Assembly: GCA_002753565.1 (NCBI GenBank)
Contig: PEAM01000003.1
Location: 9,828 to 73,827, forward strand
Length of the DNA stretch: 64,000 bases
Source: Magnetococcales bacterium
GTDB lineage: Bacteria; Pseudomonadota; Magnetococcia; Magnetococcales; JADFYX01
Direction: 5' to 3'
Shown here: piece after piece, positions 3,001-8,204 of the stretch
Position numbering within the stretch: the first letter of the stretch is position 1
Layout: the number at the start of each line of letters is the position of its first letter
Notes under the pieces: generated by a model
Told to the model about the DNA's origin: nothing
Seen by the model: only the letters and a program-made list of their open reading frames with translations
Database searches by the model: none
Translations under genes and position numbers: made by a program

Positions 3001-4696
3001 CTCCGGAAACCAGAGGGGTATTGTTCTCTCCATCCAGATGCACTACCTGATCATTGAATACCAACCGCTCAACATTTGTGATAACATCATTACCATCATC
3101 CCCATAACTATCTACATCTAAATCCGATACTGTGACTACTCCAGAATTGTTATCAATACTATAATCATCAATATTACCAGAAAAAAGGACGATATCGCTC
3201 CCATCTCCGCCATCAATGGTATCGTCGCCAGCCCCCCCTTCCAGAATATCTTCTCCACTGCCACCGCTTAGGGTGTCATCACCCGCTTCACCCCCCAAAA
3301 CTACCCCATCAGTACTGCCAACCGCTGTAAAATGGTCATTTCCTACACCACCGACTGCCATTTCAATCTGGGCAGCAGTCAGATCCAGCGTAACGCCGGC
3401 CTCACCATCAACCATGACAGAATCAACACCCGCACCTCCGTCAACACTATCATCCGCATCAATAATCAGGGTGTCATCACCCTCTCCACCAAAGAGGGTA
3501 TCGGCACCAGCACCACCATTAAGAATATCGGCCTCCAGGCTACCAGTCAGGATATCATTGCCATCCCCGCCCCGCAGAGCGACCCCGGTAGCTCCCGTGG
3601 TAGAGAAGGTATCATTTCCCTCACCGCCAACCAAAACCGAAAGACCATACGCTGCCGCATCCACTGTAAGCCCCATACTCTCTGGGGCCAGAACACCCAT
3701 TTTAAAGCCATCATCAGAACTAAAAAGACGAATACCATCAACCACCCCTTCAGAAACAAAGCCTTGGTTGAGAACCAACAAAGCGGCATCGGCTACCGTC
3801 ACCGAACTACCATCGGCCAAAGTCGCTGAGGATTCCAGTTCAATGATATTTCCTTCATACTCCACCGGATCATGAGTCACATAACCCAAATCAATGGATT
3901 CCAATCCAGCCTCCGCCAGAGTCATCAACTCCCCACTGTCACTCTCCCCATCCTGATCCAAATCCTGCCAGATCTGCACCTGTGAAAAGGCTGAATCATT
4001 CGCATTGAACACACCGTCATTGTTCTCATCCAAGGAGTGCAATGAATCAAACCCAGAGGCAAAACTCCCCCCACCATAGACACTGGAGAACATCTCAGAG
4101 CGGTCATTGATGATACCGTCACCATCGAGGTCGTGAACTAAAAAACCATCACCTGAACCTACCCAGCCGGTAGATTCAACTTGGCCATTGACTGACATAT
4201 CGAAGAGTGCAGAGGAGTCTGCTTGACTGGTTAGCTCAATACCGTCCCCATTAACATCTATGACGATAGGATCCATATGCTGGCCAGCATTTTTACCTGC
4301 TTCTCCGCCGAATAAACCTCCAATTAGTCCTCCCAAGAATTTAAACGGCCCAAGTGCTGAGCCTATTATTTGGCCTATCAATTTCCCAGTGATACTACCT
4401 CCCTTTTTTCCAATATCAGAATTTGTGCTATAATCCTCGAAAAAAGGAAAGCTGACTGGAATAGCTGCACCGTTCAAAGGGTTTTCTAAAACATTTATCC
4501 TGTACTCTTCTGCTAGGTCATGAATATGTTGATCGTGTAGAGCCTGAGCCATGCTATCAGTTGGGTAAAATGAAAACGAGTCATTGAAATAAGATGGGTC
4601 TGTTATGTCTGTTTCGAAGCGGCTAACATATCTATTCTCTATATTGCTATCTCTTATGGAAACAATAGAATTATTTGTGTTCTGCCCTACACCCAT
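1..4696 (-). CDS. Giant RTX-type Ca-binding exoprotein, N-terminal ~1565 codons; the C-terminus lies beyond the window start
   Basis: Missing from the supplied track because the frame is open to the window edge. On the reverse strand the ATG is the complement of 4694-4696, with AAGGAG 7 nt upstream (complement of 4704-4709). My manual translation stays open to position 1. In order it gives a Gly-zipper N-terminus ([31 protein letters not shown]) and a DxDxDG-type Ca module ([43 protein letters not shown]). Then come RTX nonapeptides ([33 protein letters not shown]) and a cadherin-like domain. A subtilase-like block follows ([27 protein letters not shown]), then a proprotein-convertase P-domain ([32 protein letters not shown]). 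It ends with a second RTX block ([42 protein letters not shown]) and two more cadherin-like domains. Confidence 0.85.
   Translation of the reverse strand, partial: [1565 protein letters not shown]
3546..4239. repeat. Copy A of a duplicated RTX 5' module, inside the giant gene
   Basis: Aligns with 5545-6238 at a constant offset of 1999 bp. I saw one mismatch across 3546-4170 and scattered mismatches in 4171-4239. The track ORFs 3547..3789 and 5546..5788 are identical, and 3925..4125 versus 5924..6124 differ by 1 aa. Confidence 0.95.
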
Positions 4697-4763
4697 ATTT
4701 CGTCTCCTTAAATACTGCAACAAAAAACTATTAAGTTAATCATTTCAATCACAAACCACGATC

Positions 4764-5201
4764 TCATATTTTTCCAAACCAATTGCTTCCAGGTTTGGTG
4801 AAAAGAATAAACAAAGCGTAATAGACAAGACTCAGCTGTACCATAGTCAGGGCACCTAAAACAGGAGATCGTAATATTTCGCTAGGTATTGAATAAACTG
4901 AAGATGGTGTTCCGATAACAATGAGGATGAGGTATATAATTCTCGCCCAATTTCTGCCTCTCAAAATCTTTATTAGAAGAAAGGCAATTAAAGATATCAG
5001 TAAAGTAAATATTATTCCAGAGAGCAACAGTTTTTCTTGGAGTATTGTGATGCTAATATCGTCAAACCATAATTTGATAGGAGCAAAAGCTAAAGAAACG
5101 AATATTAATAATATAGATCGTTTAACCAAATTCTGGATAGGCAAATTCGAGGGGCTGGAATTCGGGAAACAGTTACCCAATTCAGATGCGTTCTTATCCA
5201 T
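4764..5201 (-). CDS. Small polytopic membrane protein (145 aa, about 4 TM), unknown family; candidate immunity-like partner of the giant RTX protein
   Basis: Track ORF with four long hydrophobic segments (ILLIFVSLAFAPI, LLLSGIIFTLLISLIAFLLI, IIYLILIVIGT, LTMVQLSLVYYALFILF). The DNA is visibly AT-rich. It ends 67 nt upstream of the giant gene ATG. Confidence 0.6.
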   Translation of the reverse strand: MDKNASELGNCFPNSSPSNLPIQNLVKRSILLIFVSLAFAPIKLWFDDISITILQEKLLLSGIIFTLLISLIAFLLIKILRGRNWARIIYLILIVIGTPSSVYSIPSEILRSPVLGALTMVQLSLVYYALFILFTKPGSNWFGKI

Positions 5202-7606: not shown

Positions 7607-7619
7607 ATCTCATCTTCTT

Positions 7620-8204
7620 TCACCACTCCACCACCGCCATTCCCTGACCATCCGGTGCCGGCTGTAGGGTTTTGACTTTTTTGCCTTTGAACACTTTTTC
7701 CCGTAGCTGTTTCAACAGTTCATTCTGAGCCTCTTGTGGACCGACGACATCAATGAGCCAGAGTCGGTCTCCCCCTTTCCACTCATCAGGGCGCAGACGA
7801 GGATGACCCGCCTTAATCCGATTTTCTGCCTCCTCAGAGAGATAGGCCCAAGAGGCGTAGCCGACGGGTCGCCCCTGATGCCGAAAAAGAGTACACTGCC
7901 GAAGCATTACTGGTGGAACCACCAACCACTCCAGATCACTCAAGAAAAAATGCTTATGGTTGGGACTGGCTATCATCAATCCTGCCACCTGTCCAAGCAA
8001 CTCTGCCGGACTTGACGGCTCTCCCGACGCGGCTCTTTTTTCCTGTGGTAACGCAGACTGCTGACTATCACCCTCCCCCTCTTCCACTGGGACTCCCTCT
8101 CCCGTCGCTTGAGTCTCTTCTGTCATTTTTTCACTCTCAATATCAGCACGCTCACTCTCCATCTCCCACCTCACTCCACTTAAAACCGACAGATCCCACT
8201 CCAC
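7620..8204 (-). CDS. RTX toxin-activating lysine acyltransferase, HlyC/CyaC family
   Basis: The C-terminal ~130 aa align by eye with E. coli HlyC as I recall it: LLGQVAGLMIASPNHKHF, VVPPVMLRQCTLF, GRPVGYASWAYLSEEAENRI, DEWKGGDRLWLIDVVGP. The start is uncertain. The acidic ~65-aa N-terminal extension is atypical, and in-frame ATGs at 8162 and 8126 or a TTG/GTG nearer ELLGQV are alternatives. Confidence 0.8.
   Translation of the reverse strand: MEWDLSVLSGVRWEMESERADIESEKMTEETQATGEGVPVEEGEGDSQQSALPQEKRAASGEPSSPAELLGQVAGLMIASPNHKHFFLSDLEWLVVPPVMLRQCTLFRHQGRPVGYASWAYLSEEAENRIKAGHPRLRPDEWKGGDRLWLIDVVGPQEAQNELLKQLREKVFKGKKVKTLQPAPDGQGMAVVEW

Follow-up and report, generated by a model that had tools for sequence, protein, structure and literature searches.

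A candidate polymorphic toxin locus of reversed polarity, carried on an RTX scaffold with a FrpC-type self-processing module, in a Magnetococcales bacterium

Why would a giant RTX gene be preceded by a truncated relative of itself, and why would each of the two directly follow a gene for a membrane protein? This question is raised by one end of a 64,000-nucleotide (nt) stretch of DNA from a Magnetococcales bacterium (assembly GCA_002753565.1, contig PEAM01000003.1, positions 9,828 to 73,827; hereafter the window), in which the gene order on the minus strand is hlyC, mem286, truncated head gene, mem145 and giant RTX gene, where mem286 and mem145 encode membrane proteins and hlyC a member of the RTX-toxin lysine acyltransferase family. 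In a preliminary description of this DNA, the differing N-termini of the two RTX genes, here called heads A and B, had been taken for exchangeable toxin heads and the adjacent membrane proteins for their immunity factors. With a probability of roughly 0.6, we read the locus as a polymorphic toxin system of reversed polarity, which would be carried on a type-I-secreted RTX scaffold and would release its head upon a calcium trigger. The anatomy of the locus, the membership of its shared module in the FrpC-type self-processing modules (SPMs), the recurrence of the layout, the co-variation of heads with upstream genes, the arrays of truncated copies and the toxin domains in related heads were all established directly.

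Coordinates are window positions, and the elements of the locus, all read on the minus strand, are as follows.

8285..8312, minus strand: candidate operon promoter upstream of hlyC (TTGACA, 16 nt, TATTTT; 10/12 in a consensus scan, a pattern match only)
7620..8204, minus strand: hlyC, RTX-toxin lysine acyltransferase family (Pfam HlyC, E 3.8e-34, 125/127 profile positions)
6746..7606, minus strand: mem286, polytopic membrane ORF (open reading frame) of 286 amino acids (aa), by hydropathy
6679..6745, minus strand: spacer A, 67 nt, with an AGGAG box preceding ATG 6678; the length holds if head A begins there
6270..6678, minus strand: head A, 136 aa up to the Asp, split over two frames
5772..6269, minus strand: SPM copy A, beginning at the Pro that follows the Asp (SPM profile, E 7.8e-62)
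5545..6239, minus strand: near-identical tract, copy A, 695 nt (ungapped comparison, 7 mismatches vs 4240..3546)
5481..5544, minus strand: diverged RTX-repeat stub of the truncated gene (~75% identity to its full-length counterpart)
5373..5480, minus strand: 3′-end remnant of a second, diverged hlyC (17/35 aa identical; phmmer E 2.1e-7)
4764..5201, minus strand: mem145, membrane protein of 145 aa with four transmembrane (TM) segments (HMMER relatives, AlphaFold2 model)
4697..4763, minus strand: spacer B, 67 nt, with an AAGGAG box preceding ATG 4696
4271..4696, minus strand: head B, 142 aa, ending ...GQHMD (translation)
3773..4270, minus strand: SPM copy B, in the full-length gene (phmmer vs 6SJW, E 2.4e-32; SPM profile, E 8.4e-62)
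1..3772, minus strand: remaining giant RTX scaffold, with RTX, cadherin-like/Big_9, subtilase S8, P-domain and more RTX (Pfam)

All elements listed in the preliminary description, that is HlyC, the two membrane genes and the truncated and giant RTX genes, were found on the minus strand, and its observation of two equal spacers proved exact (6745..6679 and 4763..4697, both 67 nt). The heads were likewise confirmed to be distinct, although their lengths were corrected from ~146 and ~152 aa to 136 and 142 aa. For hlyC, 8204..7620 is the longest ORF and ATG 8126 is the likely true start. The giant RTX ORF starts at ATG 4696 and encodes >1565 aa, exiting the window at base 1 after 1565 codons; its product carries HemolysinCabind (E 1.4e-36 in 6 stretches, with Gly/Asp-rich nonapeptide repeats present), Cadherin_5/Big_9, Peptidase_S8 and P_proprotein, so that all the Pfam domains expected beforehand (HlyC, HemolysinCabind, Peptidase_S8 and P_proprotein) were matched. 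HemolysinCabind was also matched in the 341-aa ORF holding the RTX stub (6398..5373, E 1.6e-6). This ORF is identical to HQL72_07735, and mem286 to HQL72_07730, of a Magnetococcales metagenome-assembled genome (MAG).

What do the two RTX genes have in common behind their heads? A conserved Ca-binding/RTX module had been proposed, and such a module is indeed shared; it is an SPM of FrpC type (PF26745) of ~170 aa rather than the RTX repeat block. Copy B matched the FrpC SPM (PDB 6SJW) over query residues 14-178 with a phmmer E of 2.4e-32, a profile of 22 SPMs hit both window copies with an E of ~8e-62, and the 341-aa ORF is annotated with PF26745. The alignment with FrpC begins at the Pro of an Asp-Pro pair, and this bond is present at the first residue of the module after both heads: head A ends ...SSWFED, followed by PLIIDLDNDG, and the pair after head B is Asp142-Pro143. 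The Trp pair of FrpC (W451/W519) and its three EF-hand-like Ca2+ sites are conserved, and TGWV aligns with FrpC. The SPM folds with calcium, cuts the Asp-Pro bond and leaves an aspartyl anhydride able to link lysine (PMC7078468); all SPM homologues tested cleave with Ca2+, and any protein may precede the module (PMC12538545). Asp142-Pro143 is the predicted scissile bond in the giant protein.

The course of events that we propose, every functional step of which (export, self-cleavage of the giant protein, attack on membranes, protection of the producer and acylation) is predicted from sequence, is as follows. A type I secretion system (T1SS) would export the giant protein with its C-terminus leading, and extracellular calcium would then fold the RTX repeats and the FrpC-type SPM. 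The SPM would cut Asp142-Pro143 and thereby free the 142-aa head with a reactive C-terminal aspartyl anhydride, after which the two glycine-zipper helices of head B may enter and damage the membrane of a neighbouring bacterium, while the producer would be shielded by mem145, encoded 67 nt upstream. HlyC probably acylates a lysine of the toxin. In this scheme mem145 is the candidate partner of head B and mem286 the candidate immunity partner of head A; mem286 and head A would form an older or displaced unit, in which the toxin gene is frameshifted and truncated, lacks a secretion signal and runs into the end of an hlyC that has otherwise been lost.

The heads and the membrane proteins were compared between the two units. 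Head A is Ala/Gly/Val-rich, with two hydrophobic segments and four zipper 13-mers (hydropathy, zipper count); in head B, an acidic/aromatic N-terminal part precedes two glycine-zipper runs, each made up of four GxxxG units. The hydrophobic or zipper portion of the heads spans ~40-75 aa. The two heads are mutually unrelated (BLASTP E 1.6), and so are mem286 and mem145 (E 3.1). After a hydrophilic N-terminus of ~100 aa, mem286 has 5-6 hydrophobic segments by hydropathy, and mem145 was modelled as four long helices forming a membrane bundle (AlphaFold2, mean pLDDT, the predicted local distance difference test, 86.8). Shuffled sequences gave an ORF matching the real length in 0/2000 cases for mem286 and 1/2000 for mem145. 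The GC content at third codon positions (GC3) was 0.275 for mem286, 0.30 for head A and 0.34 for both mem145 and head B, compared with 0.52 for hlyC and 0.44-0.49 for SPM and scaffold. This indicates that the AT-richness of the units is not merely an amino-acid effect, because the third codon positions show the same drop. The glycine zipper in the N-terminus of the giant gene, the unrelatedness of the two N-termini and of the two membrane proteins, the polytopic nature of both membrane ORFs and the AT-richness of the membrane gene plus head units had all been noticed before and were borne out by these measurements.

How did the truncated unit arise? Head A is disrupted by a 1-nt insertion at ~6403/6402 and is split over ORFs 6684..6325 and 6398..5373, which lie in different frames. 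A 695-nt tract (6239..5545) recurs in the full-length gene exactly 1999 nt away (4240..3546), the copies being mismatched at 7 positions; it begins ~30 nt past the Asp-Pro codons and stops abruptly, being followed by ~75% identity for ~75 nt and then by no similarity. The last 35 residues of the truncated ORF, read in frame, are an HlyC C-terminus (17/35 identical, including VVEW and the stop), which indicates that a second hlyC formerly preceded mem145. The unit of mem286 and head A appears to be a decayed former or displaced cassette with its membrane gene intact, as would be expected if immunity stays useful. Recombination between the 695-nt repeats would place head A on the scaffold, with loss of mem145 and head B, and the tract is therefore a likely switching homology. 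Two histories fit these observations, namely tandem paralogous operons that lost the stretch reaching from the first RTX block through the second hlyC and whose SPMs were then homogenised, or a circular cassette that looped in through the SPM. The earlier view of the truncated copy as a displaced orphan head agrees with the retained SPM tract; the frameshift and the hlyC-tail remnant had gone unmentioned in it.

A tandem order and/or a frameshift of this kind could also be produced by the assembly, if strain variants had been mis-joined in the MAG. The source is indeed a Magnetococcales MAG, and a 695-nt near-identical repeat exceeds short-read length. Nevertheless, the segment running from the RTX stub through the hlyC tail and mem145 to head B is unique sequence with the repeat on either side, so that any genome containing it must have the repeat twice, arranged in this way. 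There are moreover 7 differences between the copies, and a truncated copy followed by a full-length one was seen in many assemblies of independent origin, isolate genomes and long-read MAGs among them. We thus consider an assembly artefact highly improbable.

Does the layout recur elsewhere? One genome per species was scanned with the SPM alignment pattern DLDGDGIE, which the SPMs of the window do not match, and 79 loci from many phyla were obtained (L003-L081; L-numbers label loci). ORFs were called in the scanned loci, with 88 SPM ORFs among them, and two metagenome contigs (L001 and L002) were found separately. A protein search with head B plus SPM retrieved 116 other SPM proteins, many of which have a hydrophobic or Gly-rich segment just ahead of the Asp-Pro site. 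Among 47 SPM genes with 90-330-aa heads, 45 had a same-strand ORF ending −60 to +250 nt upstream. Such upstream ORFs were markedly enriched in TM-like segments compared with those of matched control genes of the same loci: at least one segment was found in 38/45 (84%) versus 67/244 (27%) (p 6e-13), and at least two in 20/45 versus 28/244 (p 1e-6). Furthermore, a polytopic upstream protein accompanied 14/20 hydrophobic or zipper heads versus 6/25 other heads (p 0.003), and many non-hydrophobic heads followed an upstream protein with a single N-terminal hydrophobic segment. In L002, a 176-aa ORF with four TM segments lies 13 nt ahead of a head-SPM gene. Behind the SPM, RTX repeats were present in 41/43 long SPM proteins, and 14 loci contain a 700-760-aa ABC exporter, with the C39 + ABC_membrane + ABC_tran composition of an HlyB-type T1SS in 8/8 of these neighbouring proteins that were examined.

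A positive relation between heads and upstream genes was also observed, for the other loci of the SPM family. All four cassette pairs with similar upstream proteins also had similar heads (4/4), and none of the 1684 head-dissimilar cassette pairs had similar upstream proteins (0/1684, p 5e-8). This is the way in which cognate toxin/immunity modules would behave. Cassettes were in addition shared across phyla (L012/L026 and L011/L033). Within multi-SPM loci the SPMs are 86-97% identical. In most of these pairs the upstream ORFs share no similarity, and the heads are unrelated (L012, L026 and L046) or weakly similar (L001 and L058); in L044 and L072, the contig ends within the upstream copy, whose residual head matches the full-length head. 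Besides the window, arrays with truncated copies that retain the SPM occur in L001, L006, L012, L026, L044, L046, L058, L072 and L077, and the truncated copies lie 5′ of a full-length gene in the window, L006, L012, L044, L046, L058, L072 and L077. L001 holds a stack of truncated head-SPM genes (8224-11152), each after a 60-67-aa membrane ORF, with an SPM-protein fragment upstream.

As a side observation, the L001 stack lies between a type I restriction system plus resolvase and a phage-type integrase, with no full-length gene on the contig.

What kinds of protein are the heads? Pfam searches of 67 heads identified Peptidase_M23 (L014 and L076), phage lysozyme/SLT (L026), glucosaminidase, peptidoglycan-binding, Lipase_3, Mbeg1-like, AHH nuclease and RHS repeats, while the upstream ORFs include one Imm11 immunity domain, ankyrin repeats and several domains of unknown function (DUFs). 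Domains of this kind are standard for antibacterial effectors and known from families of immunity proteins. Separately, six long heads were seen to have RHS repeats or a YD-shell N-terminal of the SPM, that is, an Rhs-type cage plus a calcium-triggered cleavage module.

These domains bear on another possible role, in which the head is a retention or linking module for surface anchoring or adhesion: after export it would be clipped and covalently joined either to some target or to the envelope of the producing cell, the upstream gene would encode an envelope partner or receptor, and the cadherin/S8 scaffold would be an adhesin or protease released or attached by calcium. This corresponds to the classical view of FrpC/FrpD and agrees with a scaffold having cadherin-like and Big_9 domains. 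It also agrees with Magnetococcus sp. MYC-9 (L061:7517-11402), where both upstream genes have lipobox signal peptides (...LQSAC and ...IFGC), so that their products are FrpD-like lipoproteins paired with soluble heads. However, polytopic inner-membrane proteins would be out of reach of a secreted surface head, hypervariability, foreign composition and truncated arrays are unexpected for anchors and their partners, and M23, lysozyme, lipase and AHH heads are effectors, not anchors. An anchoring role is therefore considered unlikely, though the least so of the alternatives.

We then compared the loci that carry an HlyC-like ORF, which were 9 of the 81, and found that two of them share the architecture of the window. 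In L007 (a Hyphomicrobiales MAG), hlyC is followed by a 276-aa gene with six TM segments, a 76-nt spacer, a Gly/Ala/Val-rich head, the SPM and RTX; in L016 (a Magnetospirillum MAG), it is followed by two paralogous polytopic genes (7429-9046), a zipper head and the SPM. The scaffolds of both are 41-43% identical to that of the window over 1100-1590 aa, and the HlyC of L007 is the closest relative of the window HlyC (phmmer E 6e-52), whereas the membrane proteins and heads of L007 and L016 showed no detectable similarity to those of the window. In L007, a GC3 dip covers exactly the membrane gene and the head (0.48-0.52 vs 0.74-0.86). The expectation that the cassette varies while hlyC and the scaffold stay conserved was thus realized in the comparison of the window with L007 and L016, which speaks for a variable cassette set between hlyC and the SPM as conserved anchors.

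In L016, the SPM gene appears to be separated from the following 3180-aa scaffold ORF. Another of the loci, L043 (3075-5930), has an hlyC-like gene seemingly split in two ORFs, then a 532-aa two-SPM protein with almost no head, and after it a second, intact hlyC.

The presence of hlyC immediately upstream, as in hlyCABD-type operons, could equally point to an ordinary HlyC-activated RTX cytolysin directed against eukaryotic membranes (e.g. those of grazing protists), with the head as its pore segment, the membrane genes as passengers and the duplication as neutral decay of tandem paralogous operons after a deletion. The hydrophobic or glycine-zipper nature of the head would suit such a protein, the hlyC-tail remnant points to a former second complete operon, and the mem145 family, described below, is generic. 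Nevertheless, in classical cytolysins the hydrophobic domain spans 200-300 aa, an SPM is absent and the toxin gene comes directly after hlyC. The window departs from this layout on all three counts: its hydrophobic part covers ~40-75 aa, its head is joined to an SPM, and after hlyC a membrane gene intervenes before the toxin gene. In addition, a polytopic membrane gene follows hlyC in all three hlyC-type loci (window, L007 and L016), unrelated in sequence each time, and the TM enrichment of upstream ORFs and their co-variation with heads over 79 loci are unexpected for passengers. We rate the cytolysin explanation slightly below the anchoring one and likewise doubtful.

Several observations weigh against the reading of the locus as a polymorphic toxin system. 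No T1SS genes were found within window 8-64 kb, on the other side of the locus, and the giant gene exits the window, its C-terminal end lying beyond base 1. No conserved acylation lysine for HlyC was found. The closest hlyC-type relative, L007 (9401-10003), has Ser-Pro instead of Asp-Pro at the start of its module, so that head release is possibly not a general feature. An assembly or sequencing error of the MAG could account for the frameshift in head A. Head B had no homologue in the protein search, nor had head A, and mem286 has no Pfam/NCBIfam name and no homologue beyond itself; the pairing in the window consequently rests on position. As for mem145, neither SPM, RTX nor HlyC genes occurred in any of 80 metagenome loci of its family (L083-L162), and the neighbours of the family across these loci are heterogeneous and unrelated to one another. 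The protein mem145 itself may be a recruited generic membrane protein that serves as immunity, or no immunity protein at all.

The variation at the cleavage site was further quantified in the family. The residue preceding the first Pro of the SPM in the 88 SPM ORFs was D in 51, S in 23, A in 5, T in 3, C in 2 and others in 4. Ser, Thr or Cys at this position suggests non-cleaving modules or another self-cleavage chemistry.

As a candidate target of HlyC we considered K332, as no other Lys occurs in the interval from the SPM to the RTX repeats. It is not conserved in L007 or L016 and was dropped; the L016 head contains no Lys.

The mem145 family itself is widespread and unnamed. A full HMMER search gave 814 relatives (best E 8.7e-20), which surfaced solely in this way, a word-indexed search having found no mem145 homologue. 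Their alignment has the motif GR/KNWARI ... LLFTxPGxxWF, in which NWAR is invariant, and no significant match was obtained when PDB structures were searched for the fold of the mem145 model. Pfam and NCBIfam named neither mem145 and mem286 nor the membrane proteins of L007 and L016, and no relative of heads A and B, mem286 or mem145 was found among the ORFs of the 81 SPM loci. The family is not one dedicated to immunity, because the 80 sampled loci are without SPM, RTX and HlyC; this candidate role, lacking toxin linkage in those loci, was dropped. The family comprises ~130-aa proteins with four TM segments, some of which also carry fused zinc ribbons or Sel1 repeats. The idea that the membrane proteins would be linked to RTX genes elsewhere did not hold for the mem145 family (0/80 loci), which yet is no well-known family either. 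For the proposal as a whole, swappable heads with a cognate upstream gene, a displaced copy and reversed polarity gain from the recurrence, the co-variation, the arrays, the antibacterial domains and the comparison with L007 and L016, whereas the lack of toxin linkage of the mem145 family elsewhere speaks against it.

How does the locus relate to known systems? The nearest are the "clip-and-link" proteins FrpC, FrpA and ApxIVA, in which the same homologous SPM acts at an Asp-Pro bond with an N-terminal fragment before it and RTX after it. In frpD-frpC of Neisseria meningitidis, as here, a gene lies directly upstream, and the frpD product binds the N-terminal fragment of FrpC. However, the FrpC head is a 414-aa soluble domain whereas the window heads are glycine-zipper or hydrophobic peptides of 136-142 aa, FrpD is a lipoprotein whereas the upstream proteins of the window are polytopic membrane proteins, and the window adds hlyC and a second, decayed cassette. 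No polymorphism or orphan arrays of FrpC-type genes were found described in the openly searchable literature. A type IV secretion system antibacterial effector is homologous to RTX-protein N-termini and its immunity protein has the FrpD fold, and FrpC/FrpD were proposed as a possible T1SS effector/immunity pair (Bayer-Santos et al. 2019, PMC6759196).

With contact-dependent growth inhibition (CDI; CdiA-CT/CdiI) and Rhs systems, the locus shares a conserved delivery scaffold, a hypervariable tip, an adjacent co-varying and supposedly protective gene, and stacked truncated copies that keep a conserved piece as recombination homology. CDI ionophore toxins (PMC11630599) are membrane-active toxins with very hydrophobic immunity proteins, as are the candidates here. 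Nevertheless, in CDI/Rhs the toxin is C-terminal and the immunity gene and orphans lie downstream, whereas the window would have an N-terminal toxin with its partner and truncated copies upstream, a reversal that fits the C-terminal position of T1SS secretion signals. Release is predicted to occur here through the Ca2+-triggered autocatalytic Asp-Pro SPM instead of the VENN- or Rhs-type processing, and the window proteins have no homology to CdiA or Rhs. Caulobacter CdzC/CdzD/CdzI (PMC5380434) provides T1SS-exported glycine-zipper killers with an immunity-protected producer, and the zipper segments are common to head B; CdzC and CdzD, compared by architecture and not by sequence, are small stand-alone proteins without RTX scaffold, SPM, HlyC or cassette arrays. 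HlyA, CyaA and LtxA resemble the window in having an HlyC-family gene upstream, an RTX scaffold and a hydrophobic N-terminal region, but have no SPM, no membrane gene after hlyC, a far longer hydrophobic domain and acylated lysines in a conserved segment.

A 2012 survey of polymorphic toxins did not cover T1SS and SPM, and in the literature outside subscription-only papers no account was found of N-terminal polymorphism, an upstream immunity rule, 5′ orphan arrays or a function of the SPM in releasing antibacterial heads. The preliminary statement that no system of this polarity had been described holds only in part, being weakened by the FrpC/FrpD effector/immunity hypothesis (PMC6759196). 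The SPM, FrpC/FrpD and HlyC are already known, and reversed polarity with calcium-gated self-cleaving release would be a variation on the known polymorphic toxin systems.

Could the interpretation extend beyond this locus? We see about even chances that SPM-bearing RTX proteins, including FrpC, FrpA and ApxIVA, are a large and so far unrecognised class of type-I-secreted polymorphic antibacterial toxins, with an N-terminal toxin, upstream immunity, 5′ spare cassettes, Ca2+-triggered release and an anhydride end possibly linking the target covalently, of which the window would be a sub-type with glycine-zipper heads, polytopic immunity proteins and HlyC. If this is true, type I secretion would join the carrier routes of polymorphic toxins, and the C-terminal secretion signal would account for a gene order that mirrors the usual one, with the toxin first, its immunity gene upstream and the orphans on the 5′ side. 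The long-puzzling "clip-and-link" module of FrpC/ApxIVA would have a purpose in the calcium-gated release, and possibly the covalent targeting, of antibacterial heads. The SPM would then also serve as a search handle with which new toxin/immunity pairs might be found by the hundreds, short membrane-active peptides among them, and the effector-immunity hypothesis for FrpC/FrpD would become directly testable.

Two further features of the window were observed outside the locus. On its upstream side, the hlyC promoter region directly adjoins two transposase genes (window 8712-10738), one of rve type at 8712..9737 on the minus strand and one with Transposase_31 + DUF4351 at 9773..10738 on the plus strand. 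On the plus strand at window 27267-31382, a 1371-aa protein is encoded in which the "HA" helicase-associated domain occurs 11 times (Pfam E 3e-179) and accounts for almost the whole length.

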